DNA of 64,000 nt from a virus (Duplodnaviria > Caudoviricetes). Position 1 is the first letter of the stretch. Every line of letters begins with the position of its first letter. The DNA is taken from IMG/VR virus record IMGVR_UViG_3300042885_001472; one strand, written 5' to 3'. Below, piece after piece: positions 2,163 through 56,943 of this stretch. The notes under the pieces were generated by a model. That model saw only the letters and a program-made list of their open reading frames with translations. It had not been told where the DNA came from and did no database searches. Made by a program: the position numbers and the translations under genes.

Positions 2163-2379
2163 TGTAGTATTGGTTATAACGGTTGGATATTGGCTTTCTA
2201 ACCATTTATATAATGCCAAAATGAGCTAATATTTTGTTAGTATTTCGTTTACTTTTACTTTTTTAGGGGTCCATTATAAAATTAAACTATCTGATTTATA
2301 GCACTTTACAAAAATAATGTAAATATATGAGATGTATATAATATATATAATGTATATTTACACTATAAAACTAAACAAT

Positions 2380-2661
2380 ATGAGAAATTTAATATCAGTA
2401 AGCAATCAAACAGTAAGAGTAGGTAACTTTATTATTAGCAATGTTGCAGAATATGTTTTAGATAATGGAAATAACCAAATAGAATTTAAACTTGTTTCTG
2501 CTACTGACAATTTAGATATGGTTGTCTTAAAAAGTTTAGGTATTAAAAAGGTAGAGTTTAATGCAATGAATAATAACCACATTGATAAATTTATTGAAGG
2601 GTCAAAACAAGTTTATTTCACAAATGATTTTTTTAATTCATTAATAAAATTAACAGTATAG
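2380..2661 (+). CDS. hypothetical cassette protein
   Basis: ATG 2380 (MRNLIS) preferred over the track start at 2332. Confidence 0.65.
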   Translation: MRNLISVSNQTVRVGNFIISNVAEYVLDNGNNQIEFKLVSATDNLDMVVLKSLGIKKVEFNAMNNNHIDKFIEGSKQVYFTNDFFNSLIKLTV

Positions 2662-2891
2662 TAAAATGAAAAAACTTACTAAAATACTTCAAAGTTTAAA
2701 TCGCTTTGCAATCGGTTTGATTTGTAACAATGTCTACCGAAACGCTAATAACAAAGATAACTGCTTAATGGACTTTTGCAAAGAAAAATAATAAATGTCT
2801 ACCGTTTTTGCAAAAGCTTATACGTCTGCCAAACTGTTGCCAAAGCGTGTGTTATGTGACGTTTTTTTATTAATAAACTAAAATTAAAATT

Positions 2892-3089
2892 ATGGAAATA
2901 GGAAAATTAAAAGTAGTATTCATTCTGTCTAATGGTCAAACTTTGACAATTAAATGTAAAAAGTTTAGTATGACAAAACTTAGCGGAACAAAAGGTGAAA
3001 GGGAAATTTCGGTTGAAGGAGCTGATAGAATATGGTCTGTTGACTTAGATGAGGTAGTGGGAATAACTGCTAGATGGTGTCTACTTTAA
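2892..3089 (+). CDS. hypothetical cassette protein
   Basis: Sole ORF of unit 2851-3102. Confidence 0.7.
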   Translation: MEIGKLKVVFILSNGQTLTIKCKKFSMTKLSGTKGEREISVEGADRIWSVDLDEVVGITARWCLL

Positions 3090-3256
3090 AATGACACATA
3101 ACGGTTGCAAATATAAAACGTTTATTAAACTAAACTTAAATTGAAAAACAGAATATAAATATAAACACAACAATAAATTTGGAACACTGGAATAAATGTT
3201 TTATATTTGTTGTTATAAGTATGTATTATTTTTTAAACACTAAATTAAATAGAATT

Positions 3257-3463
3257 ATGAAAGACATTAAAGAAATGGAAGTAGAAGAACTTCGCAAAGA
3301 AATGGACGAACTTTGGGGATATTTATATATGACAAGAGAAGTCGGTGCTTATGATAAATTTGAGTGGAACGGATTAGATTATTGGGATGCTGATAGAAGA
3401 CATCACAAAGTATCACAAGAAGTTCTTCTACGGAGTATATTAGAACTCACTGATAAAAAATAA
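3257..3463 (+). CDS. hypothetical cassette protein
   Basis: ATG 3257 (MKDIKE), inside unit 3212-3476. Confidence 0.7.
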   Translation: MKDIKEMEVEELRKEMDELWGYLYMTREVGAYDKFEWNGLDYWDADRRHHKVSQEVLLRSILELTDKK

Positions 3464-3537
3464 TATTACCTATAACGATTTGCGTATATACGCAGTGCTA
3501 ACGAAAATTTAATTTGAAATACAAAATTTAATAATAT

Positions 3538-3729
3538 ATGAAAACTTTAATTGGAAAAATGAAAGCATTGCGTATATACGCTGTTATAAGCAGTGCTTTT
3601 AAACACGATTGTTGGATGAACAAGAAAATGGTATCAGCTTCTTATTTCAAAGATGGTGATAGCAGTGTAATATTTTCAACTGGTAAAAAATATTGTTGTG
3701 AAAAATGTGGGAATCAGTGGTCTGAATAG
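3538..3729 (+). CDS. small Cys-containing cassette protein; starts inside a hairpin loop
   Basis: HDC...CCEKCG. ATG lies in the loop of hairpin 3473-3586. Confidence 0.7.
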   Translation: MKTLIGKMKALRIYAVISSAFKHDCWMNKKMVSASYFKDGDSSVIFSTGKKYCCEKCGNQWSE

Positions 3730-3833
3730 CATTGCTTATAACGTTTTGCAGCTAATAAATCGGCTTGCTGTTTATTAGGTGCGGTTATAGGTATGTGTTT
3801 TTTGCGTAGGAATTAACAACTAAAATTATAAAT

Positions 3834-4001
3834 ATGAAAATTAAAATTAAAACCGAAAAAGTAGAATTTGAATTTGATGATGAGAAAATTTTTCAAATGG
3901 GAAATTATTTTGAAAAGGAAAATAAAGCTGTTTTAGAATTTCTAAAGGAGTGTATTCAAAAGGTAAGTGAGGAATCGATTAAAATTAATAAACGTGAGTA
4001 G
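3834..4001 (+). CDS. hypothetical cassette protein (55 aa, not in the ORF track)
   Basis: MKIKIKTEKVEFEF...KRE*, sole ORF of unit 3784-4029. Confidence 0.65.
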   Translation: MKIKIKTEKVEFEFDDEKIFQMGNYFEKENKAVLEFLKECIQKVSEESIKINKRE

Positions 4002-4086
4002 TGCGGTGGGTAAAAACATTACCTATAACGGTTTGCAGCTTTGAGCCGTTTAAACGAATATTAATTTAAAACAATAATTAACGAAT

Positions 4087-4314
4087 ATGAAAAATGAAAC
4101 AATAAAAAATGGCTTAAAGGTGCTGTTAGTAGCTGTTATTTTTTGCGGTTGTGATACTACTGTAAGGAAAAATTTAACAGGTGAAAAATATTTTGGAAGT
4201 GATATAGAAGTGCTTGTAGTCGATAGTTGTGAGTATCTGATTTTTGCTTCTGGTACGAGAAGTGTAACGCATAAGGGGAACTGTAAATATTGTGCAGAAC
4301 GTAGCAAAAAATAA
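4087..4314 (+). CDS. putative lipoprotein, cassette family A copy 1
   Basis: Lys-rich N-terminus, LLVAVIFCGC lipobox-like motif, HKGNCKYC; paralog of 13897-14160. Confidence 0.7.
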   Translation: MKNETIKNGLKVLLVAVIFCGCDTTVRKNLTGEKYFGSDIEVLVVDSCEYLIFASGTRSVTHKGNCKYCAERSKK

Positions 4315-4430
4315 TTGCTACTAACGGTTGAGGCTATGAGTAGTTGCCTTGTAAATACTGCTCAATTAACCACAAACGCTGATAGGCAATTGCTTATAGC
4401 CTTTGTTATAGGTTGTAAAATTTATGGATT

Positions 4431-4673
4431 ATGAAAGTAACAGATTTTATTGGAGTGAAAGCTAAATACGATGAAGATGGACAATTTATTTGGGGAATTG
4501 AAAAGGATGGTGGACATCAAAAACTTGCTGATTTAAGAGGTTGGGGAGCAATTCAAAACTTATTCATCAATAAGGATAAAACTATTGATTTAGATGCAGC
4601 AGCAAGTTTTCAAGATGAATTTGGCAGATGGATTGTCGAGGCTATAAACGAGAAATTGGAATGGGAACGGTAG
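4431..4673 (+). CDS. hypothetical cassette protein
   Basis: Sole ORF of unit 4405-4693. Confidence 0.75.
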   Translation: MKVTDFIGVKAKYDEDGQFIWGIEKDGGHQKLADLRGWGAIQNLFINKDKTIDLDAAASFQDEFGRWIVEAINEKLEWER

Positions 4674-4814
4674 TAAATTTTATTACCTATAACGGTTGGC
4701 GATTGGTGTCTGTTATTTTGCCTTGCAGACATTTCAATTTTACGATAAACTTAATAGGCAAAATTATAGCACCAATTGCTTGTTAGCAGTATGTGTTTTT
4801 AAACTTTTTTAGCG

Positions 4815-5009
4815 ATGGCAGGATTAAATTATGGAAACTCTTTTACAAAAAAAAGAGGTATGTATAAAAATAAAAAGGTTGGAGTTAGTTACGCTGAGTT
4901 GGCGGATAAATGGATTGTAAGAATATTAAAAAATGGAACAGTAACAACAATTGCACAATTTAAAACAAAGGAGGAAACGGATGAATATTACGGTGCGTTG
5001 GCAGTTTAA
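4815..5009 (+). CDS. possible AP2-like DNA-binding cassette protein
   Basis: GVSY...KWIVRI...F.T.EE pattern resembles an AP2 domain; unit 4782-5025. Confidence 0.45.
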   Translation: MAGLNYGNSFTKKRGMYKNKKVGVSYAELADKWIVRILKNGTVTTIAQFKTKEETDEYYGALAV

Positions 5010-5076
5010 AAACATTACTGCTAACGTTTTGCAGCTAAACTTAGTTTATTAACCGAATTTAAAACACAATGTAATT

Positions 5077-5325
5077 ATGGAATACAAATCAGAAGATTTT
5101 ATATCATTTATAGAGAATAACAGACGAGATAAGGTAAGCCCTAACGGACTTGAATTAATTGCTAAACGTTTTAGGGAACTGGAATGCGAGGTTAATAAAT
5201 TGAGTTTAGCTGCTGTTAGCGGTTCGTTGAGTAGTAAATGTTTTACGTTAGCGAATGAATTGGCAATAGCTGGTTATGGAAACGAAGCCGTTATGTTACA
5301 CTCAATTAGTAATTCAATACAATGA
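5077..5325 (+). CDS. hypothetical protein; N-terminal ~45 codons lie in a hairpin loop and arm
   Basis: Reads through the right arm of hairpin 5022-5218 (KLSLAAVSGSL). Confidence 0.7.
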   Translation: MEYKSEDFISFIENNRRDKVSPNGLELIAKRFRELECEVNKLSLAAVSGSLSSKCFTLANELAIAGYGNEAVMLHSISNSIQ

Positions 5326-5422
5326 CCGCTAACGTTATCGAGCCTTGCACAGCTAAGGTGTCGCCCGGGTTGGGTTATAGGTAGGTTGTAACGAATGTTT
5401 AATTAATACACAATTTAAAAAT

Positions 5423-5683
5423 ATGGAAAATACAGATTTAATAGGAGAAGATTTTTATCAAATAGAAAAACAAAAAGGTAATATTTTAGATGTAAATAGT
5501 GCTATGGCTTTTAAAATAGCTTGGGATTATGCAATTGGTTATCATAAAAATAAGGTTAAAATAATAGAATTAGAGCTATTAAAATACAAAGAATTAGAAA
5601 AAAAAGTTCGTGAAATTTCTGATAATATTAATACTAAGCAAAGTATATCTTATTGCGTTATGGAACATTTTAAAATTATATAA
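5423..5683 (+). CDS. hypothetical cassette protein
   Basis: Unit 5374-5722. Confidence 0.7.
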   Translation: MENTDLIGEDFYQIEKQKGNILDVNSAMAFKIAWDYAIGYHKNKVKIIELELLKYKELEKKVREISDNINTKQSISYCVMEHFKII

Positions 5684-5834
5684 TCAAAAATGTTTCTAAA
5701 TGATACACAACTTACCTATAACGTTTTCGAGCTAAGCCCTCGTTTTAATGGGGCTTAGGTTGTGTTACCTGCTGGCGGCAGAGAAATGTTGCTATAAGAC
5801 TTTAATATAAAAAATAACTTAAAATAAATATAAA

Positions 5835-6305
5835 ATGGAAAGAAGCGATTTTAGAATCATAGAAAGACTGAACTCATTTGGTAAATCTGAATTTATTATC
5901 CAACATAAAAAACATAAAATGGTTGGAGGTTTCTTCGGACTATTTGGTGGTACTATGCAAGATGTATGGGAAGACTTCTACCTAGAAGTATATGAATGCT
6001 ATGTAAACGACCAACACAGATTTCATAAATATCTATTTATACAAAATTGGAAAGAAAATACAGAAGAAGAAATTGAGTTCTATATAGAACACTTCAATAG
6101 AAAACCAATTGAGTATAGAGGATATAAATTAATTCCGATTGTTTCATACTTTGGTCAAAAATGCCTAACCTATTATGACCCTAAATCATTTTGTAGAAGA
6201 GGTAATTACAACTATGGTTATAGAATATATAGTAGTGAATATGAATCCAAGAAGTATATAGATGATAAATTAGATAAAGGCAGAATATTAAATATTTATG
6301 AATAA
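5835..6305 (+). CDS. hypothetical cassette protein
   Basis: Unit 5764-6398. Confidence 0.75.
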   Translation: MERSDFRIIERLNSFGKSEFIIQHKKHKMVGGFFGLFGGTMQDVWEDFYLEVYECYVNDQHRFHKYLFIQNWKENTEEEIEFYIEHFNRKPIEYRGYKLIPIVSYFGQKCLTYYDPKSFCRRGNYNYGYRIYSSEYESKKYIDDKLDKGRILNIYE

Positions 6306-6394
6306 TATGAAGATTCCAATAGGTGAAAATGAAATAGTTTAGATTTTTTTAACGGCACATACAAAACTATTTCAAAGTAGCTACCGCTTGCAGG

Positions 6395-6471
6395 TAACTA
6401 TTATATATAAACAAGTATAGTCTAAACCCTTTAATAACAATACTTTGAACCAAAAAATTATAAAGATTTGT
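6395..6471. repeat. conserved array-terminal site, copy 1 (candidate attI-like site)
   Basis: 73/77 identical to 16134-16210 by manual alignment. Confidence 0.85.
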
Positions 6472-6542
6472 AAATAAAAGTTTAATTATCTTTTAAAGAT
6501 GAAAATCACTAAATAAAATTAGGAAAATATAAATTAATATGT

Positions 6543-6550
6543 TATCTTTG
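6543..6550 (+). promoter_or_regulatory. Bacteroidota-type -7 promoter element TAnnTTTG (representative copy)
   Basis: Also at 11863, 27317, 32772, 36176 and 61369, and on the minus strand upstream of minus-strand genes. Confidence 0.65.
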
Positions 6551-6565
6551 TAAAAAATATATGTT

Positions 6566-7024
6566 ATGGAAAGTTTAGATGTTAAAAATTTTTGTTTAGT
6601 TATATTAGGTAAACAAAATGACGTTAAAAAAGAGTTAGAATTTATTTCTGAAGGACCAATAAATTATGTTGAGGGAAAATATTTATTCATCGCAACTTTT
6701 AAATCAACATTGTTCGCGAAGGATATTGAAATCTTTTTAAGTAGTTCCAATATAAATTATATCTTATCTGAAATGGTTTCTTCATTATTTTCGGCTGATC
6801 TTGGTGAGTTTAATTCAGCACTATTTAATTTAAATCAAAATACTAATATTTTTGAGAAAAAAATTGTTGTAGATTATACTGGAACTGAAGAAGCTGTAAT
6901 TATTGATGAAGAAGATGAAAATTTAACTTTAGATGAATTATTGGATTTAGTGTCTGAAATAGGATTGGATAAATTAACAAGTAAACAAAAAGAACTTTTA
7001 AATAAATTTTCACTAAATAAATAA
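6566..7024 (+). CDS. hypothetical protein
   Basis: 152-aa ORF co-oriented with the sigma factor. Confidence 0.75.
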   Translation: MESLDVKNFCLVILGKQNDVKKELEFISEGPINYVEGKYLFIATFKSTLFAKDIEIFLSSSNINYILSEMVSSLFSADLGEFNSALFNLNQNTNIFEKKIVVDYTGTEEAVIIDEEDENLTLDELLDLVSEIGLDKLTSKQKELLNKFSLNK

Positions 7025-7025
7025 T

Positions 7026-7835
7026 ATGGTAAATAAAAAATTCATTAATGGTCAAGAAGATTCAATTTCAAATTACCTTAAGGATGTAAAAAAGTGTGGT
7101 GTTATTAACACTGACACTGAAGTTGAATTAGCTAAAAGAATACAAGAAGGTGATCAAGTTGCCGCTGATGAATTGGCTAAAGCTAATCTTAGATTTGTTA
7201 TATCAATCGCCAAAGAATATCAAAATCAGGGATTACCATTAGCGGATTTAATTTCAGAAGGTAATTACGGATTGATTATAGCGGCTCAACGATTTGACTA
7301 TACAAAAGGGTTTAAATTTATTTCTTACGCTGTATGGTGGATAAAACAATCTATTATGCAGTCACTAAACGAACATTCCAGAACTGTTCGGTTACCAACT
7401 AATGTTATCAATAAACTTTCTAAAATTAAGAAAGAGATAGATGCGTTTGAGCAAAAGTTTGAAAGAAAACCAGTATTAGGTGATGAAATTGAAATGGTAT
7501 TCCACCCAACAGTGATATCGTTAAGTACAACAATAAATGATGATGGTGATGAGTTAATTGAAGTTATTGAAGATCCTAACATTAATAGTCCGGACAATGA
7601 TCCATATAATGAGTACGACATTAAAGAACGTATGAATAAAATTCTATCAATTCTTTCTGAAAGGGAGAAAAATGTGATTGAGTTATATTATGGTATAAAT
7701 GGATCACCTTTAACATTGGAAGAAATTGGTGAGGAATATGATTTAACTAAAGAAAGAATTCGTCAAATTAAAGAAAAATGTATCAGAAAACTTAGAAATA
7801 ATGCTGATGTCTTACAACAACAATTATTTGGATAA
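7026..7835 (+). CDS. RNA polymerase sigma-70 family factor (RpoD/RpoS-like)
   Basis: Region 2 ANLRFVISIAKEY, DLISEGN, FISYAVWWIKQ; region 4 HTH TLEEIG..LTKERIRQI. Confidence 0.95.
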   Translation: MVNKKFINGQEDSISNYLKDVKKCGVINTDTEVELAKRIQEGDQVAADELAKANLRFVISIAKEYQNQGLPLADLISEGNYGLIIAAQRFDYTKGFKFISYAVWWIKQSIMQSLNEHSRTVRLPTNVINKLSKIKKEIDAFEQKFERKPVLGDEIEMVFHPTVISLSTTINDDGDELIEVIEDPNINSPDNDPYNEYDIKERMNKILSILSEREKNVIELYYGINGSPLTLEEIGEEYDLTKERIRQIKEKCIRKLRNNADVLQQQLFG

Positions 7836-7980
7836 ATATGAATAAATTTAATGAGTGGTGGAACGAAGTTTTATTCGTTATTAATATTAGTATCTTTGAA
7901 ATATCTGTTGATAATGGAATGATTTGTTCATTGATATTGATAATTTTTGGATTAATGAGTTTATAAATAAAACAAATAAT

Positions 7981-8160
7981 ATGAAAAAAGACATTGAAAT
8001 TAGTGTAACTGAAACAAAATCAGTTGAACATGTTAGTTATGAAGAGTTGTATAACTCATTAAGAGATAGAATTAGATTAATTCAACAACTTAATGATAAA
8101 TACGAAAATGATGAAGATTTTGGTAGAAATTTAAGAAAATTATTGAATTTAGGTGGGTAA
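7981..8160 (+). CDS. hypothetical protein
   Basis: ATG 7981 (MKKDIE) preferred over the track start. Confidence 0.6.
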   Translation: MKKDIEISVTETKSVEHVSYEELYNSLRDRIRLIQQLNDKYENDEDFGRNLRKLLNLGG

Positions 8161-8247
8161 AAATATTGATACTAACGGTATCGGACTTGGCGATGTTGCC
8201 GAAAACAAATGTTAATTAGAATTACTAAACTTTAAATTATAGATAAA

Positions 8248-8544
8248 ATGTCAAACGAAGAAATGAACGGCAATATTGTCAAACCCGTGTTACCTGTTGT
8301 ACTTATTTGCGATTGCAGTAGCCGTGAACACCAAATTATCATTGAACACAACAATGAAGATAACTTAACCTACTGCCATATTCATTTGGTAAAACACGGC
8401 TTTTGGCGAAGATTGAAAGTTGGTTTAAAATACATATTTGGTTATAAATGTAGATACGGTCAATGGGATGAATTTATATTAAAACCCGAACACGCTAACC
8501 AGCTTCGTGAATTGTCGAATTTTCTTTCACAGCATAGCAGGTAA
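8248..8544 (+). CDS. hypothetical cassette protein; starts in a hairpin loop, stop overlaps TAAC
   Basis: CDC...H...H motif; TAA 8542-8544 is part of the TAAC core. Confidence 0.75.
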   Translation: MSNEEMNGNIVKPVLPVVLICDCSSREHQIIIEHNNEDNLTYCHIHLVKHGFWRRLKVGLKYIFGYKCRYGQWDEFILKPEHANQLRELSNFLSQHSR

Positions 8545-8665
8545 CGGTTGAGTAGTAAAAAATTCTAAAACTAAAAATTATGTATACAAAAGATTTATAT
8601 GGATTTAATCCAGTTACAATTGGCCAACACAGGTTGGTTATATTTATTTATTTATAACTAATAAC

Positions 8666-8965
8666 ATGAAAACTAAACAAGAAATAGAAAAGTTAGCTGA
8701 GCAATATTTACAAAAAAATAAACATAATTTTGATACTTGGAAAGAGATAGAACATGTTAAAATTAGTTATATAGATGCTTACACTCAATGCCAAGAAGAT
8801 GTAGATTGGGAATTATTAGTGAAGTTGATTAAAAGGTATACAGAAGAAGATTTACTTCACGCTTTTAGAGAAGGAGTTTTATTACCTAACTCACAAATTG
8901 GTATAATGGAAGATATATTTAAACAAGTAGTTCAATCACTAAACAAACAAGACAATGAAAACTAA
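8666..8965 (+). CDS. MKTKEEIEQLAE-family paralog 1
   Basis: Shared modules MKTK.EIE.LAE, YTQCQED and SLNKQD. Confidence 0.75.
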   Translation: MKTKQEIEKLAEQYLQKNKHNFDTWKEIEHVKISYIDAYTQCQEDVDWELLVKLIKRYTEEDLLHAFREGVLLPNSQIGIMEDIFKQVVQSLNKQDNEN

Positions 8966-9221
8966 AGAAGAAATAGAACAGTTAGCTGAAGAATTTGGGG
9001 ATAAATATGCTGATAACGGAAATCATAAATATGGTTTTATCAAAGGCTACACTCAATGCCAAGAAGATATGGCTGATAAGAAATCCACAGAGGAAGATAT
9101 TAGAAAGGCTATTGAAGTTGGTGTAAATGCAGAAGCCGGTGATTATCCAAAAGGTTTTACACACAAACTTGGAATTAGCTTAGAAGATTATTTTATTAAC
9201 TCACTAAACAAAAAAGACTAA
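8955..9221 (+). CDS. MKTKEEIEQLAE-family paralog 2
   Basis: Same shared modules. Confidence 0.75.
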   Translation: MKTKEEIEQLAEEFGDKYADNGNHKYGFIKGYTQCQEDMADKKSTEEDIRKAIEVGVNAEAGDYPKGFTHKLGISLEDYFINSLNKKD

Positions 9222-9222
9222 T

Positions 9223-9510
9223 ATGAAAAGCAAAGAAGAAATAGAACAGTTAGCTGAAAATCAATATCCAATTGAAGTAGGAGGTTCGATGTGGATGCCT
9301 AATACTAATGATATTAAAAAGGCTAATGAACAAGAAGGTTACATAAAAGGTTACATTCAATGCCAACAAGATATGGCTGATAAGAAATATACAAAGGCAC
9401 AAATTATATGGGTAATACAAGAAGCATACGGACACGGTAGAGATAGTGAAGACACTATTGAAGAAAGTATTGATTATATTTTTAACTCACTAAACAAACA
9501 AGACTTATGA
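9223..9510 (+). CDS. MKTKEEIEQLAE-family paralog 3
   Basis: Same shared modules. Confidence 0.75.
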   Translation: MKSKEEIEQLAENQYPIEVGGSMWMPNTNDIKKANEQEGYIKGYIQCQQDMADKKYTKAQIIWVIQEAYGHGRDSEDTIEESIDYIFNSLNKQDL

Positions 9511-9612
9511 TACAAAAGATTTATCTAAATGTAATTAGTTTTATATTTTTATTAATTGCAAAATTGATTATTAAATGTTTAGATTTTATCAACTCATTAA
9601 ACAAACAAAACA

Positions 9613-10497
9613 ATGACCAGTAAAGAAGTAATGGATGCAGCATTTAATTTAGCTAATAATAAACAAAAGACAATGAAAAACATACACATATTGCCAACGG
9701 ATAAACCAAGTATATTACATTTATATACTGATGAAAATGGCACAAGACTTGAAACTTTTGAAGTAGAATATTCACACACAAGAGATACTCAACACATCTA
9801 CATCACTTCTGATGAAGAAATTAAAGATGGAGATTGGTATTTAGACACCTTTAATAATCAAAGAATTAAAGCTAATGAATTTTCAGACCATAAACATTAC
9901 GGAAATGCTTGTAAAAAAATCATCCTAACAACAGACCAAGACTTAATTACAGATGGTGTTCAAGCTATTGATGATAAGTTTTTAGAATGGTTTGTAAATA
10001 ACAGTAGTTGTGAAAGTGTTGAGGTTGTAAAAGACGGTTTAAAAGTTAAAGAGGGAGGTATTCAAGAACTAATGGAAGATGAGTATTATCAAAAATTCCC
10101 AGAAGAGCTTCCAAACTGCGTTTTTATTGATAAATATGAAATCATCATTCCACAAGAAGAACCTAAACAAGAAACACTTGAAGAAGTTCAATTAGCTATT
10201 TTATTTCATAATACTTATGAGAATTTAGCACCAAATTTTGGTTATGAAACAAGAGCAGATACAAAATCATTTGAAACTACTACTCCAAATGGAATGTTAA
10301 TGATTGCTGTTTGTAAAGAAATAATTAAATGGCAACAAGAAAGAAGTTATAGTGAGGAAGAAGTAAAAGAAATAATTAAACTTTCTTGTGAAAAAGGTAT
10401 GCTGATTCAAAGAACTATAAATGATAAAGTTAAAATTCCATATACAAGAATAAAAGACTTTACGATTAAAATGTTGGAACAATTTAAAAAGAAATAG
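9613..10497 (+). CDS. hypothetical mosaic phage protein
   Basis: 294-aa ORF. Confidence 0.75.
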   Translation: MTSKEVMDAAFNLANNKQKTMKNIHILPTDKPSILHLYTDENGTRLETFEVEYSHTRDTQHIYITSDEEIKDGDWYLDTFNNQRIKANEFSDHKHYGNACKKIILTTDQDLITDGVQAIDDKFLEWFVNNSSCESVEVVKDGLKVKEGGIQELMEDEYYQKFPEELPNCVFIDKYEIIIPQEEPKQETLEEVQLAILFHNTYENLAPNFGYETRADTKSFETTTPNGMLMIAVCKEIIKWQQERSYSEEEVKEIIKLSCEKGMLIQRTINDKVKIPYTRIKDFTIKMLEQFKKK

Positions 10498-10498
10498 T

Positions 10499-10825
10499 AT
10501 GAAAACTAAAGAAGAAATAGAACAGTTAGCTGAAAGCCAATATGGAACTGAAATAGGCAGTATAAGAGGGAGTAATCCTTATGACTTAGAAGGAAATAGA
10601 AAAAATGGCTTAAAGGTGCTGTTAGTGGATGATAAAATTAAGTATGATGATTTAAAAGACGGAGATATTTATGAGCAGGAACAAAGCAAAGGCGAATGGG
10701 TAAAAGGAAAAATTTGCCACCATTGGAGAGGTAGTTTAATGATAGAATTAATTGAAGGAAGATTGAATGGGAAGCAATGGTATTTGTTTCCTGATTTAAA
10801 GAGATTAAGGCGTGTGGCAGCTTAA
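10499..10825 (+). CDS. chimeric protein: MKTKEEIEQLAE head, hairpin-arm peptide, cassette body
   Basis: KNGLKVLLV is encoded by an orphan right arm at 10601-10624, identical to the arm in 4087-4314. Confidence 0.7.
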   Translation: MKTKEEIEQLAESQYGTEIGSIRGSNPYDLEGNRKNGLKVLLVDDKIKYDDLKDGDIYEQEQSKGEWVKGKICHHWRGSLMIELIEGRLNGKQWYLFPDLKRLRRVAA

Positions 10826-11088
10826 TTTTATTTGCCACTAACGGTTGAGTGTATGAGAAGGTTTGCTTTGTTAAACTTTCAAATTACCACCGACCTTTGT
10901 AGCTAACTTTCTTATACACCTTGTTATAACCAGTACGGATAAATTAGCACTGAACTTGATACGAAGAACGAATAAAAACTTTTTAAAAATGTGCGGTGGA
11001 AAACTTGATTAATTTAAAAATAAGTAGTATATCTGTAATATCATAATAATAATAAACTAATAAACTAATAAACTAAAAAATTAAACAA

Positions 11089-11682
11089 ATGGCAAAATTT
11101 ATTGAAACAATTTATCCAACTATTGAAGATAGAGTAAGTAGATGGGAAACAATGGGAATGTTACATATAGTTAAATCTGATGATTCTAAAAAATTGGTGG
11201 CGATGGCACTTGATGCAACTGCAATATATCTTACAGAATTTAATTTTAAAAATTTTGATAACGATACAAAAACGGTTTTAATACCAGTAATTGTAAGAAT
11301 TTTCAACGAAACAAACAAAGATTTCACATTAGAAACATTAACTAAATCAGTTAGAAGAATAATTGAAGATTTTGTGGAAAAATATGAAGAAGCAAAACCT
11401 AAGTTTAACCCATTAACTTCCGAAAGAGATGATGATGCTGAATTTATTGCGTTATATTGCGAAAACTATTCTTTTGATGAAAACAAAATTAAAATTAAAT
11501 TTAAAATTACATTTTGGAAAGATATTCCAGAAAGAACATTTATAATTGATGATACCAACTTCTTTCCAAAATATTTTATGGGGTTGGATGGTATTTTATA
11601 TGAAAATTATGGAACAGAGGAAAAACCAATGTGGGAAAATGTTTTTGATAGTGACTATGAGATTGAAATTGTTAATCTTTAA
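11089..11682 (+). CDS. hypothetical cassette protein
   Basis: Unit 10923-11753. Confidence 0.75.
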   Translation: MAKFIETIYPTIEDRVSRWETMGMLHIVKSDDSKKLVAMALDATAIYLTEFNFKNFDNDTKTVLIPVIVRIFNETNKDFTLETLTKSVRRIIEDFVEKYEEAKPKFNPLTSERDDDAEFIALYCENYSFDENKIKIKFKITFWKDIPERTFIIDDTNFFPKYFMGLDGILYENYGTEEKPMWENVFDSDYEIEIVNL

Positions 11683-11884
11683 GGTGGGAAATTTTTAAAA
11701 AGTTTTTCTCACAGAACTTAAATATGGAACACGAATGTAGTATTGGTTATAACGGTTGGGTGTATGAGAAGGTTTGCTTAGATGAACTTTCAAATTATAC
11801 ACAACTGTTATAACCAGTACGGTTAATTTAAGATAAAACTTGATTAAATGAATAATAATTAGTATATTTGTAAAAAAATAAATT

Positions 11885-12358
11885 ATGGAAAACATATTAA
11901 AAAGGCTTGAATATAAAATATTTAAGAAATACGAAAAAAAGATTGAAGATGTAAAAGATTATGTATGGGATTATAAAAAAATCAATAATGACATTACTCA
12001 ACTTGAACACAATGAAACATTGAGTCGTTTTGTGTTATATTATATGAAAGAATTTAACTTAGATGTAATAATTACATCTGGAGAAATTTGCACTATATTT
12101 CAAAACTTTAGTAATTTTTATATTATTGGTGAAAACGATGTATATAATTATAAAAGATATAAATCTGACATTAGTAATGATTTTGAACCATTTTACCTTA
12201 TCAAAGAAGAAGATAATAATATTGGGGTTGTAATTAAAACCAATATTAGAATTGAACCGAATAATATTATACTAACAAACACTGAAGGTTCTAATTATAA
12301 AATAATTGATGTTTGGAATTTACCAAGTGTTAAACTAACTGAATGTTTTAAAAAATAA
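11885..12358 (+). CDS. hypothetical cassette protein
   Basis: First gene of two-gene unit 11807-12719. Confidence 0.7.
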   Translation: MENILKRLEYKIFKKYEKKIEDVKDYVWDYKKINNDITQLEHNETLSRFVLYYMKEFNLDVIITSGEICTIFQNFSNFYIIGENDVYNYKRYKSDISNDFEPFYLIKEEDNNIGVVIKTNIRIEPNNIILTNTEGSNYKIIDVWNLPSVKLTECFKK

Positions 12359-12362
12359 AGAT

Positions 12363-12701
12363 ATGGAAAAAGAAAATTTAAAAACTGGGGTGTACCTCAT
12401 AAAAGCGGATAGTAAAGATTATTCCTTAACAAAAGAGAAAGAAGAGAAAATAAATTCATTAGAAATTAATGAAGAACATAAAGATTTTTTCAAAAATCTT
12501 TTTAGAGAAGAACCAACACCAAAAGGTTATGATTTATTAGTTGAATTGGTTGGTCAAAATCCTTTTTTAAAAATCAAAAGTGTTAAAAATAATGATACTG
12601 GTGAAAATATTACTGAACAATTTACTGATAAAAATATTGATGATGTTAATTCTTTATGGTTATTTACTAAACATTTAGAATGGGTTCTTCAGAACATATA
12701 A
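12363..12701 (+). CDS. hypothetical cassette protein
   Basis: Second gene of unit 11807-12719. Confidence 0.7.
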   Translation: MEKENLKTGVYLIKADSKDYSLTKEKEEKINSLEINEEHKDFFKNLFREEPTPKGYDLLVELVGQNPFLKIKSVKNNDTGENITEQFTDKNIDDVNSLWLFTKHLEWVLQNI

Positions 12702-12846
12702 CGTAGTATTGGTTATAACGTTTTGCAGCTTTAAGAAGTGGCTGCCTAACGGAAAGTTCAAAGTTCGCACAATGTTTATGGCAGCTTTTGCCAAACCGCT
12801 GTTATGTGCTGGGCGGATTATCAGTACTAATTTTAATTTAAAAACG

Positions 12847-13059
12847 ATGTACAAAGCATTTCAAAACAAAAAGTATTATTTGGCGTTTAACCGATTTCCT
12901 AAAACTGCCAAAAAAGTAGGGGGTGTGCATAAAGCATATTCAACAGGATTTAGAAAATGGAATTCTGATGATATGATTACCTACGCAATAGTTGTCGGCA
13001 CATTCAGGATTATGTTTGGAATTAAAACGCCAAATTATACTTGTGATGAAGGATGTTAG
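12847..13059 (+). CDS. hypothetical cassette protein
   Basis: ATG 12847 (MYKAFQ) in unit 12801-13072; the track start at 12709 is probably an over-extension. Confidence 0.6.
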   Translation: MYKAFQNKKYYLAFNRFPKTAKKVGGVHKAYSTGFRKWNSDDMITYAIVVGTFRIMFGIKTPNYTCDEGC

Positions 13060-13129
13060 CCTTGCACATAACGCTTTGCAGCTTTGAGCCGTTTACCAAA
13101 TATTAATAACAAAAAAATAAATAACGAAT

Positions 13130-13309
13130 ATGCCAAAAACAATACATGCAAAAAGAGAAGATTTAATTTGCGGAAAAATAGACTTAGCACAAGATATGGC
13201 TATTAAATTAAAAAGTATCGAATTACTTGAATTATTAGATAGTATCAGATATGATGCTGTAAGAATGGAACAAAAACTTATTAGCAGAAAACAGGAATCA
13301 AAAATATAA
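13130..13309 (+). CDS. hypothetical protein (59 aa, not in the ORF track)
   Basis: MPKTIHAKRE...ESKI*. Same ACGAATATG start context as 4087 and 14703. Confidence 0.6.
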   Translation: MPKTIHAKREDLICGKIDLAQDMAIKLKSIELLELLDSIRYDAVRMEQKLISRKQESKI

Positions 13310-13490
13310 ATAACAGAACCACCGCTTGCAGGTAACGGTTTGCAGATTGCCGAAGGTGGCGAAATCGAAGCACTAAACTTGATATAAAAACGAATGTTAA
13401 ACCGAAGCACAACAGTTGATATTAGCACTAAACCGCCACTTTTGGCAATGTGCTGTTATAAGCCGTTTTTCTTCACAAATCAAAAAATAA

Positions 13491-13830
13491 ATGGATTTAC
13501 GAATTGAATACATTTTCAGAGAAGAAATGAAAAGAGATACATCTTTTCAAGAAAAAAAAAACTGGGTTAAGTTTGCTTTTCGGAACAAACAAATACTCTA
13601 AACAAGAAATGAGAGAAACTTGGGATAGAGGTATTAAACTTGGAATAGAAATAGGATTGCGAAAAGCAAGTTTAGAAGGACAAAGGATTGAACTTAATCA
13701 CAATACACCCGAAGGAAAGCATAAGGAATTTCTTGAAAAGTTTTATCAATTGGCTGATGAATATAAATGTGCTGTCCAATTTCATCTCGAATTTGGAATG
13801 GTAGTAGTTGCTCGTCAAAATGGCTTATAA
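13491..13830 (+). pseudogene. cassette gene frameshifted at an A10 tract
   Basis: MDLRIEY... joins ORF 13573-13830 if the A10 tract (13552-13561) were A9. Confidence 0.55.
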
Positions 13831-13896
13831 CGGTTTGCAGATAAGCGAAGGCAAAGATTTAGAAACGAAAATTTTAACTTAAAAACAAATATAATT

Positions 13897-14160
13897 ATGA
13901 AAACGAGAACATCATTAAACCACAGAACCTTTGCTTTTGCTTATGTGCTGTTAGTAGCTGTTATTTTTTGCGGCTGTGAGGATATGAATAGAGCCGAAGA
14001 ACGCTCAAAAGTATTTAAAACAGCAGTAGAAGTTAATGGCTACCAAATATCAATAATAGAATTTGATAGTTGTCAATACTTAATATCAGGCGTTGGCTAC
14101 TCACAAATGATGACACATAAAGGGAACTGTAAATTTTGTACAGAACGTAGCAAAAAATAA
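13897..14160 (+). CDS. putative lipoprotein, cassette family A copy 2
   Basis: LLVAVIFCGC, HKGNCKFCTERSKK; ATG in the loop of hairpin 13828-13953. Confidence 0.7.
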   Translation: MKTRTSLNHRTFAFAYVLLVAVIFCGCEDMNRAEERSKVFKTAVEVNGYQISIIEFDSCQYLISGVGYSQMMTHKGNCKFCTERSKK

Positions 14161-14290
14161 TTGCTACTAACGTTTTGCAGCTAATAGACGGGCTGGAAAC
14201 TTATATAATTCCGCCTGTTTATTAGGTGCTGTTATAGGTAGTGCCAAATATAAATACTAAAAGAATATTAATAATTAAAAAATAGAAATA

Positions 14291-14632
14291 ATGAACTTAA
14301 AAGAATTTGTAAAATTTACATTTGAAAAATACGAAAAAAACGGGTATTGTTTTAGACCTAGAATAGTTTGTAATGATGGGTTTTCAATGAGTGTACAAGG
14401 TAGTAACGCATTATATTGTAGACCGAGAATTACACAAGATTGGTATGATAAAATGGAAATAGGTTATCCATCAGCAGAAGAAATTGATATAATAGAATTT
14501 GCTGAGGATATTACAAAACCAACTGATACCGTTTATGGTTATGTGCCATGTGAACTTATTGAAAAAGTTATTTTAAAACACGGTGGTATTAACTCGGTTG
14601 AAACATTTAAAGCTTCTAAGGATATTAAATAG
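14291..14632 (+). CDS. hypothetical cassette protein
   Basis: Unit 14231-14646; CNDGFSMSVQ...GYPS...VYGYVP. Confidence 0.8.
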   Translation: MNLKEFVKFTFEKYEKNGYCFRPRIVCNDGFSMSVQGSNALYCRPRITQDWYDKMEIGYPSAEEIDIIEFAEDITKPTDTVYGYVPCELIEKVILKHGGINSVETFKASKDIK

Positions 14633-14794
14633 GCATTACCTATAACGGTTTGCAGCTTTGAGCCGTTTAAACGAATATTAATTTAAAACTAAAACAACGA
14701 ATATGAATAACAATGAAATAGAAAATGGCGCAAAGGTGATGTTGGTACCAGTAGCCAAATTAAAATTTAAAAACAATAACTTAAAAATACAATT

Positions 14795-15055
14795 ATGAAA
14801 AACAACAAAGAAAAATCGTACCAATACGCATCGATGATACAAGAGGCAATAGCTGAATTGATTTCAGAACACGAATTATTAGCTGATTTTGATGATGAAA
14901 ATAACGCAACTGCATTTTTACACGCATTAGCTAATGTAGTGCCATGTAATATTTATAAGAAATTAACTAATGATAATACTGATATTTTAGGTTTTAATCA
15001 TATTGCTAATAGATTAGTATATCAATTTACAAAGCAGGACGAAGCCGAAGCGTAA
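14795..15055 (+). CDS. hypothetical cassette protein
   Basis: Unit 14741-15079. Confidence 0.7.
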   Translation: MKNNKEKSYQYASMIQEAIAELISEHELLADFDDENNATAFLHALANVVPCNIYKKLTNDNTDILGFNHIANRLVYQFTKQDEAEA

Positions 15056-15199
15056 ACGCCAAGGGCTATTGGTACTAACGGTCGGCAATATGAAACGGTT
15101 GCCCTTGTAAGACGTTTCAAAATATGATGCAGTTTTCTGGCAACTGTTTTATATTGCTTGTTATAGCCAGTTAATTTTAATCAATAAAAACGAAAAAAG

Positions 15200-15400
15200 A
15201 TGGAAGCACCTAAATTAAATGAAGTATGGCATGTTCAATATGGAGAAGCCATTGGTAAAGAATACAATATCCTTGTAAGAATAGATGAGGATAAAAAAGA
15301 GTTAAATCCACCGAATTGGAGAAGAAACAAGTATAAATGTGAGCATAAAAGTAAGGAACTGATGGTAGGTGGAAATATGTTCATTGAACGGTTTTCTTAA
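15200..15400 (+). CDS. hypothetical cassette protein
   Basis: Unit 15160-15411. Confidence 0.7.
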   Translation: MEAPKLNEVWHVQYGEAIGKEYNILVRIDEDKKELNPPNWRRNKYKCEHKSKELMVGGNMFIERFS

Positions 15401-15588
15401 TTGGCTATAACGGTTGGGTGTATGAGAAGGTTTGCTTAGATGAACTTTCAAATTATGCACAAATGCTGATAGCAAACTTTCTTATACACCTTGTTATGTG
15501 TAGGTGTGGTTAATTAAGGTAGAATGTTCAATTGGATAACTGAACAAAAATTTTAAAAGAAAAAGAAAGGTGGATTTTTATTATTTTA

Positions 15589-15596
15589 ATATTTAT
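15589..15596 (+). promoter_or_regulatory. putative phage late-promoter motif ATATTTAT (representative copy)
   Basis: Recurs shortly before start codons at 20085, 21256, 38448, 46525, 50002 and 62244. Confidence 0.55.
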
Positions 15597-15611
15597 ATAT
15601 AAAAGAAAACA

Positions 15612-16061
15612 ATGAAAGATTTGAAACAATTTATTAAAACAACCATACGAGAGTTTTTGAATGAGAGTTCAATTGGGAATATTGAATATAAAATAACATA
15701 TTCACCACCAGAAAATATTCATGTTGTAGCAAAGATTGATGGTGTTATAATTGGAACATTATCTATAATAGATGATAGTCATTTCTTATCAACAGAAGAT
15801 GAACCAACATTTACAATTATGTCAGTATTTGTAGATAAAGAATATAGACAAAAAGGTATTTATATAAATTTAATCAAATATTTTTTACTAAATAATAAAT
15901 ATGGTGTCAAATCGTTATATTCTTCAAAAGAACCAGAATTTGATACAGAAAAAAGAACATCGGTTGCTGATGGTTTTTGGAAAAATGTTTATACAAATCA
16001 AAATAAATATGGTGTAAATGTTGATAAAATAGATAATGATTATGAAATTTCTTTAAAATAA
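15612..16061 (+). CDS. GNAT-family acetyltransferase-like protein with virion-targeting-like N-terminus
   Basis: Acetyl-CoA-binding-like VFVDKEYRQKGI; N-terminus MKDLKQFIKTTIREFLNE. Confidence 0.65.
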   Translation: MKDLKQFIKTTIREFLNESSIGNIEYKITYSPPENIHVVAKIDGVIIGTLSIIDDSHFLSTEDEPTFTIMSVFVDKEYRQKGIYINLIKYFLLNNKYGVKSLYSSKEPEFDTEKRTSVADGFWKNVYTNQNKYGVNVDKIDNDYEISLK

Positions 16062-16133
16062 GTGCGGTGGTATTTTTCTTTTAAAATTTCCAACCGAAAT
16101 ATTGATTAGAAGGATGAACGGAACACTTACACA

Positions 16134-16210
16134 TAACTATTATATATAAACAAGTATGGTCTAAACCCTTTAAAATTAATACTTTGAACCAAAAAATTAT
16201 AAAGATTTGT
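16134..16210. repeat. conserved array-terminal site, copy 2
   Basis: 73/77 identical to 6395-6471. Confidence 0.85.
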
Positions 16211-16334
16211 TAAGAAAAGTTTATATATTATAAAATATAACCCAATAACACATAATTAATTCATTAATAACCTCCACTTTAACAATAAATTGATTATTTT
16301 TTTATTATAATAATATTTATATTAAAAAAAAGAT

Positions 16335-16640
16335 ATGGTTAAAGTAGTAAATTTTTTAAAAGTATGGGGGATATTAATTATTTCCGTACTATTATTCTTT
16401 AAAACTTGTTCAATAACAAGTAAAGTGGAGAAGTTATCAAAAGAAACTAAAGAAGAACTTGTTAAGTTAGATAGTACGGTTAAAAGTGAGACTATTTCTG
16501 AAGAAGAATTCAAAAAAATGATCACTATTGAAGGTTTGAAATCAGAAAAAAGAATGATTCAATCAACAGATAGAAAAATTTTAGATGTTAATAGACAATC
16601 TGAAATTGATAAAGAAATTGAAAACTTAGAGAATAAATAA
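16335..16640 (+). CDS. membrane-anchored coiled-coil protein
   Basis: N-terminal hydrophobic helix. Confidence 0.7.
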   Translation: MVKVVNFLKVWGILIISVLLFFKTCSITSKVEKLSKETKEELVKLDSTVKSETISEEEFKKMITIEGLKSEKRMIQSTDRKILDVNRQSEIDKEIENLENK

Positions 16641-17374
16641 TGGTGGGGGATGTGATTATATATACATTAGAATGTCCTTTAAGTAATAAAATTAAATATA
16701 TAGGTAAAACTATGAATTTAAAGCTTAGATTATATGGTCATATTAACAAATCTAAAAATAAAAAAACATATAAAGATAAATGGGTTAATTCTTTAATAAT
16801 TAAGGGTCATAAACCAATTATGAATGTTTTAGATATTGTAAATGAAAATGAATGGGAATTTTGGGAAAAATTTTATATTTCTTTATTTAAGAGTTGGGGG
16901 TTTTCTTTGACTAACCATACGGAAGGTGGTGATGGAGGATCTTTTAAAAAACATTCCATTGAAACCATAAAAAAAATGTCAAATAAAATACCGTGGAATA
17001 AAGGGATTCCATTTTCTGAAGATGTTAAGAAAAAAATGAGTGAGTCAGGAAAAGTAAAAGTTTTTACAAAAACTCATTTAGAAAATATGTCTAAATCACT
17101 TAAAGGTAAAAAAAGAGGTAGTTTTAGTGAAGAATGGAAACGTAATATCAGTAAAGGTAAGTTAAACACGATAATGTCTGAAGAAACTAAAGAAAAATTA
17201 AGAAATACGTCACCAAAAAGAAAGAAAATTATTTGTACAAGTACAAATATTATTTATAACAGCATATCTGAAGCTAGTAGACTTTTAAAAATACCAGTTA
17301 GTACAATTAATGGTGTGTTAAAAAAAAGAAGAAAGTTAGCTCATGGATTATTATTTAATTACTACAATGATTAA
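16640..17374 (+). CDS. GIY-YIG homing endonuclease with NUMOD3 and NUMOD1-like HTH
   Basis: IYTL..KYIGKT..LRLYGH, EKFYI, repeated SEETKEKL-type motifs, YNSISEASRLL. Confidence 0.85.
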   Translation: MVGDVIIYTLECPLSNKIKYIGKTMNLKLRLYGHINKSKNKKTYKDKWVNSLIIKGHKPIMNVLDIVNENEWEFWEKFYISLFKSWGFSLTNHTEGGDGGSFKKHSIETIKKMSNKIPWNKGIPFSEDVKKKMSESGKVKVFTKTHLENMSKSLKGKKRGSFSEEWKRNISKGKLNTIMSEETKEKLRNTSPKRKKIICTSTNIIYNSISEASRLLKIPVSTINGVLKKRRKLAHGLLFNYYND

Positions 17375-36198: not shown

Positions 36199-36613
36199 GG
36201 GTCCGACATGGTTTTGACAGCTAAGTTGATGATTAGGTGTAAGCACGTAGTGAGATGTCAACTATCACTTAAATCTATGTTGGTAAAAAATAAATGCAAC
36301 AATCGTTAAAAACGAAGTCGGTACTTTAGCCGATGTCCTAATGGCTGAGAAATACAACCTATTAGGTGCTATCAAAGGAACAGAAGCTGAACTAGCCCTT
36401 TCTTAGTTATATCCGGAGAAGTATAGTAACCGGATCGCGTAAAACAGTAAACACTTATTGATACTGGGTGGATAAAATTAGGTCAACTATTTTGGTATTG
36501 TGATAGTAAATTCAAAACACCTTATTTGTCAGTTTATAAAAATTGAATAAACGTGTAGAAGACCAGTTATTAAGTAGTATGGACGAGGGGTTCGATTCCC
36601 TCCGGATCCACTA
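36199..36613 (+). ncRNA. ssrA: tmRNA
   Basis: 5' GGGTCCG pairs with 3' CGGATCC-A, including G3-U70. T arm GAGGGG-TTCGATT-CCCTC; TTTTGAC D-loop analogue; internal tag ORF 36296-36406. Confidence 0.9.
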
Positions 36614-56843: not shown

Positions 56844-56868
56844 GTTATTTGATTTTTTAAATGATAAG

Positions 56869-56943
56869 TGATCCCGACAGGATTCCAACCTGTAACCCTT
56901 GTCTTAGAAGGACAATGCTCTGATGCGGTTGAGCTACGGGACC
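56869..56943 (-). tRNA. tRNA-Arg(TCT) with non-canonical elbow
   Basis: GGTCCCG/CGGGATC acceptor, GCTC/GAGC D stem, TTGTC-CTTCTAA-GACAA anticodon arm, T loop TTGGAAT. Confidence 0.85.

Follow-up and report, generated by a model that had tools for sequence, protein, structure and literature searches.

Two gene-cassette arrays of a giant freshwater phage look like a largely unrecognised integron variant

A 64,000-nucleotide (nt) stretch of IMG/VR virus record IMGVR_UViG_3300042885_001472 (Duplodnaviria; Caudoviricetes), called the window throughout, carries two arrays of small genes on its plus strand, at 2165 to 6398 (array 1) and 8161 to 16137 (array 2), whose members are separated by hairpins that begin with a TAAC core and end with a GTTA core. 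We think it probable, at roughly 0.78, that both are gene-cassette arrays of an integron-like system common to Bacteroidota, Flavobacterium above all, and their phages; the system of this giant freshwater phage looks like a largely unrecognised integron variant for gene swapping between bacteria and viruses. An integron analogy had been proposed in a preliminary description made from the letters of the window alone, and it is upheld here by hairpins, end complementarity, breakpoints at the core, an attI-like lone core, and a linked recombinase in relatives, all of which agree.

Hairpin sites and complementary cassette ends

A strict scan of the window (TAAC, 4 to 6 nt, 12-nt arms scoring at least 8.5, 0 to 2 nt, GTTA) returned 16 sites on the plus strand, of which 15 fall in the two arrays, while the minus strand had none; 100 simulated sequences of equal first-order (dinucleotide-frequency) composition contained 1.6 ± 1.3 such sites with a maximum of 5, and the number of sites is far above chance. 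An alignment (A1) of 35 sites from the window, from Muminvirus and Lillamyvirus siphophages, and from Polaribacter phage P12002L yielded a covariance model, R1, which matches the window 21 times, always within 2165 to 5779 or 8161 to 15508; the remaining 48 kb contain no match, most sites score 40 to 80 bits, and 3 of the 21 matches had been left out of the training set. Thus the roughly 20 TAAC...GTTA sites that the preliminary description had seen between co-oriented genes become 21 R1 matches on one strand in two arrays, and the site lengths it gave (49 to 197 nt, core to core) and the asymmetry of 5 nt against 1 to 2 nt are reproduced by the strict scan.

The TAAC and GTTA cores are invariant in A1, and the most frequent register leaves 5 nt between TAAC and the stem and 1 nt between the stem and GTTA. 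The inner stem shows both-sided changes at 14 of 14 pairs, and none of 500 shuffles reached the observed covariation score; as in attC sites, we find an imperfect palindrome with inverse AAC/GTT cores in which structure rather than sequence is conserved. No Rfam family matched between 1500 and 17000. If a site is read as an analogue of attC, its outer stem runs up to ...TAAC/GTTA...; an asymmetric internal loop, with 5 nt on one side and 1 nt on the other, separates it from a 12- to 24-bp inner stem whose sequence varies while its pairing holds, and a free loop of 10 to 150 nt closes the hairpin. Two further details noticed earlier are also present: ATG or N-terminal codons lie in the loop and right arm of the sites starting at 3473, 4026, 5022, 8173, and 13828, and two open reading frames (ORFs), 8248 to 8544 and 13573 to 13830, end with stop codons that overlap TAAC.

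A regularity described beforehand, that each unit starts with the reverse complement of its own end, survives a permutation test. Across 19 units running from GTTA to the next TAAC, complementarity between a start and its own end averages 11.9, against 5.5 for the ends of other units; in 18 of the 19 cassettes no other end scores above the cassette's own, ties being allowed, a result matched by none of 20000 permutations. A G.T apposition at base 11 of the outer stem is nearly constant. We propose that a start complements its own end because the joined cassette ends of a circle form the outer stem; own-end pairing is the pattern expected if each unit once was a circle whose ends formed the outer part of a long hairpin.

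The two flanks of a single hairpin are 53% paired, which is the background level, and this bears on a quite different explanation, that the sites are selfish palindromic repeats (MITE-like, that is, akin to miniature inverted-repeat transposable elements, or REP- or IS200-like, REP standing for repetitive extragenic palindromes) inserted between genes. Short multi-copy palindromes with a fixed tetranucleotide near the hairpin foot do recall REP and the ends of IS200/IS605. We nevertheless find this explanation hardly credible: the flanks of gene units are complementary and those of single hairpins are not, the sites are strictly co-oriented with one site per gene, the enzyme alongside is a tyrosine recombinase and not an HUH transposase, and the units that move carry genes. 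Membership in the REP/RAYT or IS200/IS605 class was rejected on the linked tyrosine recombinase, the gene-bearing mobile units, and the non-complementary flanks of single hairpins. Homing by a nearby GIY-YIG endonuclease was considered and rejected on the same grounds as the rival explanations; a gene resembling GIY-YIG / NUMOD homing endonucleases lies at 16640 to 17374, just after array 2 and its recombinase fossil.

Lone cores, linked recombinases and host chromosomes

As the preliminary description had proposed, the covariance model was run on the window, on phages, and on Bacteroidota chromosomes; sites were found in all three, and with this the picture of a phage-only system must be given up, for the same sites fill the chromosomes of Flavobacterium and other Bacteroidota. 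R1 has matches in 110 of the 151 Flavobacterium species genomes searched and in 31 of 151 genomes drawn from Bacteroidota at large, and 210 kb from five Flavobacterium chromosomes hold 196 R1 sites in strictly co-oriented arrays. Repeat length is uniform within one host array (about 150 or about 177 nt); one stretch (L041-L044, G077:C1:1,938,767-2,003,244) lines up about 110 sites in the same orientation, all ~177 nt long, over ~65 kb.

At the array ends of two host genomes (G090 and G077), a lone core (TAAC followed by TAGTAAATATCA..., or CAAC followed by TTGTATATATGC...) precedes a tyrosine recombinase gene, the G077 ORF having 582 amino acids (aa) with an N-terminal extension of ~300 aa. 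The best family for the host recombinase is NF040815 (XerA / integron integrase; 230.8 bits, cut-off 220); against TIGR02249 it scores 210 to 219 bits (cut-off 265) in two aligned stretches, profile positions ~180 to 253 being absent, and among known structures archaeal XerA aligns in one piece, VchIntIA (2a3v) in two. The IntI-specific additional domain lies around patch III (Messier and Roy 2001). By its sequence, the array-linked enzyme is XerA/IntI-like and without the IntI-specific domain. An ordinary intI beside the arrays, which together with detection of all sites by standard attC models would, according to the preliminary description, have made this a known type of system, was found neither in the window, which has no recombinase, nor in relatives, whose enzyme is XerA-like.

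Searching IMG/VR with the host enzymes retrieved viral homologues of 43 to 47% identity. When 40 of the loci so retrieved were scanned with R1, 71 sites lay directly upstream of the recombinase gene in at least 17 loci, all on the strand of that gene and none downstream of it. With 265 to 269 aa, the viral recombinase shares 46% identity with its host counterpart and likewise has no IntI domain; it scores 168 to 183 bits against NF040815 (below the cut-off) and 143 to 153 bits against TIGR02249. In viral contigs L069 and L071, the array ends with TAAC followed by TATTATATATA, 38 to 48 nt before the recombinase ATG, and 7 of 9 other viral loci checked have the same junction ~50 to 90 nt before the recombinase coding region. 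The lone TAAC with TATTATATATA next to a recombinase gene is attI-like, and would serve as an integration site.

Both window arrays end with TAAC followed by TATTATATATAAAC, and the next ~100 nt align with the attI-like flank and first recombinase codons of three viral loci (L074, L065, and L090). In array 1 the lone core at 6395 to 6398 closes the last cassette, judging by sequence and own-end complementarity, and is followed at 6399 to 6500 by the attI-like flank and a 5' fossil of the recombinase gene (KIIKICK*KFNYLLK, from 6454); in array 2 the lone core at 16134 to 16137, again on own-end complementarity, closes a cassette with a GNAT acetyltransferase ORF (15612 to 16061), and flank and fossil occupy 16138 to 16260 (KIIKIC*EKFIYYKI*, from 16193, with the ATG deleted). 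An intact recombinase begins MKNQKIIKICEEKFIYLNYSPRTRDNY; the remnant after each window array amounts to ~20 codons with stops. Since the same flank and recombinase fossil stand at both ends, both arrays appear to be integrons that lost their enzyme, and any present activity of theirs would need an enzyme in trans, for example that of the host. The phage's attI flank was not found in the metagenome-assembled genome (MAG) G001.

In the mechanism that we propose, a tyrosine recombinase of the Xer/IntI type would swap strands within TAAC; the cut would be TAA/C, by analogy with the AA/C bottom-strand cut of classical attC; a cassette would be C + hairpin + GTTA...gene...TAA; and new cassettes would enter at the lone core that precedes TATTATATATA, the analogue of attI, adjoining the recombinase gene. 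Here we infer single-strand folding, the exact cut position, the reacting strand, and any present activity of the arrays.

Host and phage cassettes are oriented differently. Host arrays follow the classical layout, with ORFs that run opposite to the orientation of R1 in 34 of 36 intervals; in phage arrays the ORFs lie on the R1 strand (5'-TAAC-5 nt), in 19/19 cases in the window and 28/32 in IMG/VR contigs. It is the bottom strand of classical attC that IntI cuts, at AA/C, one base from the spacer. Since phage genes occupy the equivalent of this bottom strand and breaks fall in that core, phage cassettes are inverted relative to classical and host cassettes, and the inversion places the hairpin before the gene, where it often supplies upstream region, ATG, and N-terminus. 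On this point the preliminary description, in which each gene unit started at GTTA, needs correction: the phage cassette is an upstream hairpin plus gene, with crossover at the TAAC of the coding strand.

Hairpins that lie on the coding strand and enclose start codons might instead be RNA-level elements (terminators, processing sites, or translational control), the mosaic having arisen by homologous or microhomology recombination as proposed for the promoter early stem-loop (PeSL) cassettes of T4-type phages. In a folding test phage sites did fold better on the coding strand (29 vs 6), and the junction motif TAACGTT, the most conserved short repeat, could favour slippage. We nevertheless consider this improbable: host sites, antisense to their genes in nearly all intervals, have no strand preference in folding; a terminator role leaves unexplained the end complementarity across 120 to 900 nt; the lone core with its conserved flank and the constant linkage to a tyrosine recombinase are likewise unexplained; and the homology at recombined junctions (see below) is very short, with no match in Rfam.

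Cassette turnover and the make-up of the arrays

Evidence that cassettes move comes from three pairs of Muminvirus and Lillamyvirus isolates that are 99.5 to 100% identical and have one array difference each: a 506-bp cassette indel between mumin6-1 and mumin6-4, a 439-bp indel between sniff9-1 and sniff9-2, and a cassette swap between lillamy9-1 and lillamy9-6. All six breakpoints fall within TAAC(G), junction homology is just 6 to 7 nt, and the segment gained or lost is a hairpin plus the gene downstream; since the breaks are inside TAAC, the mobile unit is the hairpin with its downstream gene. The comparison of cassette order among relatives that the preliminary description had suggested thus reveals indels and swaps that break at the core.

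More distant comparisons place most block ends at TAAC; 11 of 31 cross-genome homology blocks start no more than 3 nt from a TAAC core, and whole TAAC-bounded units are common to unrelated genomes. Shared blocks with a TAAC boundary are 8172 to 8549, 11747 to 12368, a block from 15408, and the lone hairpin 4322 to 4410. The unit from TAAC 8173 to TAAC 8545 has 88.6% identity with a 3.5-kb contig of a Flavobacterium MAG (L016); 8281 to 8549, in the cassette of ORF 8248 to 8544, is 89.6% identical in 46 cultured Flavobacterium siphophages of ~38 kb, and is the only DNA they have in common with the window; and 11747 to 12368, a hairpin with its ORF, is 79% identical to viral contig L063. A tblastn search with window ORF 27352 to 29418 turned up nothing closely related to the giant phage among cultured phages. 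We conclude that cassettes move as units with crossover in the core, by a chemistry that would be the one outlined above.

The siphophages with a homologue of ORF 8248 to 8544 carry arrays of the same site type, including several DNA methyltransferase cassettes (L007, L011, and L013, in Muminvirus and Lillamyvirus arrays at ~1.4 to 9.5 kb, minus strand); in these three loci a lone core, TAAC followed by TACAATATTACATG, precedes a 65-aa ORF which is not a recombinase. By the strict scan, the MN8122xx Flavobacterium phage genomes contain at least 6 to 13 sites each. P12002L (L015) has two sites, at 38035 to 38090 and 38879 to 38936 on the minus strand, flanking methyltransferase gp54. The Muminvirus description (PMC7077304), which mentions no hairpins, ties plating efficiency on host LMO6 to the presence of one methyltransferase, and turnover of Muminvirus and Lillamyvirus cassettes may set host range.

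Several observations weigh against the integron-like reading. Specifically, i) no Xer/IntI-like ORF occurs in six frames of the 64-kb window beyond the two fossils; ii) tyrosine recombinases are altogether absent from Muminvirus, Lillamyvirus, and P12002L, and cassette turnover in these siphophages therefore depends on an enzyme of the host or a co-infecting phage, or on another mechanism; iii) the linked enzyme of relatives does not have the IntI-specific domain, which attC recombination is believed to require; iv) the better folding of phage sites on the coding strand would also fit a role in RNA; v) a few homology blocks end at GTTA or within a hairpin, not at TAAC; vi) the paralogous lipoprotein cassettes 4125 to 4325 and 13950 to 14171 have neither flanking hairpin in common, and exchange on the GTTA side or hairpin replacement must therefore also occur; vii) five metagenome contigs (L002-L006) have an unchanged cassette order over the array parts they cover; and viii) no recombination was seen directly, the contigs of public runs containing no clean excision junction and many joints from other organisms. 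Excision circles or junctions, which the preliminary description had suggested looking for, thus did not appear in public runs, where there were short contigs only; and of the gene capture and shuffling platform that it envisaged, the shuffling is borne out by cassette turnover in related phages but not by the five contigs of this phage, where the order is the same.

A more serious alternative is that the arrays are real cassette arrays but now fossils, fixed in an early or accessory region after loss of the recombinase, and that their hairpins are expression signals at best. Of each recombinase gene ~20 codons, interrupted by stops, are left, and the copy in array 2 has no ATG; degraded sites exist, namely the GTTG at 14744, the half-site at 13069, and the weak site at 8530; and all five contigs agree in cassette order over the array parts they cover. 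We regard this alternative as unlikely though far from negligible, because most sites still score 40 to 80 bits, 18 of 19 cassettes retain a complementary outer stem, and the arrays of cultured siphophages show very recent cassette turnover even though these phages have no recombinase.

Metagenome contigs from several lakes match the window at 99.8 to 100% identity. Two of them (L002 and L003) part from the window at 10013, within a 294-aa ORF and away from any core. One lake contig (runs X8 and X13 set) joins the GTTA of hairpin 14168 to 14234 to the cassette starting at 5764 (14234 to 5785), so in some other genome this cassette has different neighbours. High-depth contigs of the same runs (joint 3237 to 3455) contain a gene-less unit with only the outer arms of cassette 3212 to 3476.

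All features of the two arrays lie on the plus strand. Array 1, delimited by R1 matches and own-end complementarity, comprises 10 hairpin sites and 10 cassettes, with plus-strand ORFs in 10 of 10, and ends at its lone TAAC. Both the strict scan and R1 recover site 1 (2177 to 2239), site 2 (3099 to 3215), site 3 (3473 to 3586, with the ATG of ORF 3538 to 3729 inside the loop), site 4 (3739 to 3787, at 49 nt the shortest), site 5 (4026 to 4128, whose loop and right arm code the N-terminus of the lipoprotein-like ORF 4087 to 4314), site 7 (4690 to 4785), site 8 (5022 to 5218, at 197 nt the longest, with a coding loop and outside the training set), and site 10 (5719 to 5767); R1 also identifies site 6 (4322 to 4408) and site 9 (5330 to 5377). 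The hairpin of site 6 alone, 4322 to 4410, is 95.6% identical to one in viral contig L069.

Array 2 has 11 R1 matches and one half-site, is interrupted by a site-free block from 8666 to 10825, and likewise ends at a lone TAAC. The strict scan and R1 agree on sites 13 (10839 to 10926), 18 (13828 to 13953), 19 (14168 to 14234), and 21 (15076 to 15163). Site 11 (8173 to 8292) opens the unit with homology in L016, hairpin plus ORF 8248 to 8544. Further R1 matches are a weak, degenerate site at 8530 to 8652 (E = 0.03); site 14 (11750 to 11810), which with ORF 11885 to 12358 is akin to L063, the homology starting from TAAC; site 15 (12716 to 12804); site 17 (13333 to 13458), which is 72 to 80% identical, loop included, to sites in Flavobacterium chromosomes; site 20 (14643 to 14744), outside the training set and with its right core degraded to GTTG; and site 22 (15408 to 15496), where cross-genome homology blocks begin exactly at TAAC. 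The half-site at 13069 to 13130 consists of TAAC, left arm, and loop of the hairpin type found at 4026 and 14643, including upstream region and ATG context, and is fused to a different ORF (13130 to 13309) without right arm or GTTA.

Pfam gave no match for 20 cassette ORFs, and the GNAT acetyltransferase is the sole cassette product with an assigned function. The site-free part from 8666 to 10497 holds three tandem paralogues with MKTKEEIEQLAE-like starts and the 294-aa ORF. ORF 10499 to 10825 is a fusion: its N-terminus comes from the MKTKEEIEQLAE paralogue family, 27 nt at 10594 to 10620 are identical to the right arm of site 4026 to 4128 with its GTTAGT core, and the ORF then runs into a cassette ending ...GCCACTAAC at 10842; the left half of that hairpin was apparently replaced by part of a gene. 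Metagenome contig depth is 30 to 100 times higher at 9756 to 10737, as if parts were common to abundant other organisms. Elsewhere in the window, the interval between the arrays codes for a sigma-70 family factor with regions 2 and 4 (7026 to 7835), and ARAGORN reports (36199 to 36611; 56868 to 56943) a transfer-messenger RNA (tag AEKYNLLGAIKGTEAELALS), a tRNA-Arg(TCT), and two odd tRNA-like calls.

Comparison with integrons and other cassette systems

The usual view holds that integrons are chiefly proteobacterial, depend on the IntI-specific domain, and seldom occur in phages. The arrays described here follow integron logic with another subtype of recombinase and with sites of another geometry, and sites of R1 type occur in 110 of the 151 Flavobacterium species, in about one fifth of the sampled Bacteroidota, and in many of their phages. 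Somewhat less firmly than the main reading, we favour the broader view that this is an unrecognised integron lineage of Bacteroidota and their phages, with a short Xer-like recombinase without the IntI domain and hairpins with 5/1 spacers; that its phage cassettes are reversed, the hairpin supplying expression signals, a start codon, and even signal peptides; and that it lets unrelated phages, as different in size as 38-kb siphophages and giant phages, trade accessory and anti-defence genes such as the Muminvirus methyltransferases linked with plating efficiency. If true, this would put a concrete mechanism behind the familiar mosaicism that phages show in their small early and accessory genes, and would offer a route by which anti-restriction methyltransferases pass between phages, with a published host-range phenotype (PMC7077304). 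Reversed phage cassettes whose sites encode N-termini would be a new coupling of recombination sites to gene expression, and the system offers a natural test of which attC and IntI features recombination of folded DNA really requires.

A full-text literature search of incomplete coverage found no description of this site family, which we provisionally take to be undescribed. IntegronFinder 2 and HattCI, applied by Qi et al. 2023 (Front Microbiol, PMC9892861) to 10,705 phage genomes, yielded 17 small attC clusters, each of 2 to 4 predicted sites without integrase, some with DNA methyltransferases; one was in Polaribacter phage P12002L, and no Flavobacterium phage is listed, though Muminvirus genomes were public. 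P12002L attC1 (TGCTAAC GGCTAC stem..stem ATT GTTAGGC) is a site of the present type; among the six sites put to the test, it alone lacks a reported verified IntI1 junction. The sites flanking gp54 differ from the attC1 and attC2 tested in that study, which drew no link to host arrays, an Xer-like enzyme, or inverted cassettes. IntegronFinder 2.0 (PMC9024848) lists for Bacteroidetes only In0 elements and one Salinibacter integron. Since published surveys show almost nothing in Bacteroidetes, standard detection tools probably miss such arrays.

Archaeal XerA and archaeal IntI (NF040815; PDB 5hxy, 4a8e) are the best family and structural relatives of the linked recombinase; archaeal IntIs have been described with the IntI additional domain (Ghaly et al. 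2022, PMC9668308), whereas the present enzymes are without it. The definition of a CALIN (cluster of attC sites lacking an integrase; at least two attC sites and no integrase near) describes the 10 + 11 R1 matches of the window, with the reservation that these sites are non-canonical and the definition may not apply.

In T4-type phages, small early genes are reportedly shuffled as stem-loop-bounded modules, the PeSL cassettes (Arbiol et al. 2010), whose repeats of promoter plus stem-loop are thought to act via homologous recombination. The likeness lies in small early phage genes shuffled between repeated stem-loop motifs; PeSLs differ in that neither pairing between the ends of one cassette, nor a lone core, nor linkage to a tyrosine recombinase is known for them.

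The resemblance to classical integrons (for example, the Vibrio superintegron with its VCR repeats) is closer: i) promoter-poor small genes stand between imperfect palindromes with AAC/GTT cores; ii) the sites are conserved in structure, and a cassette end pairs with its own start; iii) crossover is in the core, one base from an unpaired spacer, and a lone core with conserved flank lies by a tyrosine recombinase gene; and iv) repeat length is uniform within a host array. There are also differences. The spacers of classical attCaadA7 are 6 against 5 nt, those of the present sites 5 nt against 1 nt; the classical R box has 7 bp, the present outer stem 10 to 20 bp with a fixed G.T; the present enzyme is XerA-like, below the TIGR02249 cut-off, and without the IntI-specific domain; the host recombinase gene points into its array; and phage genes are inverted, the hairpin loop holding ATG and N-terminus.

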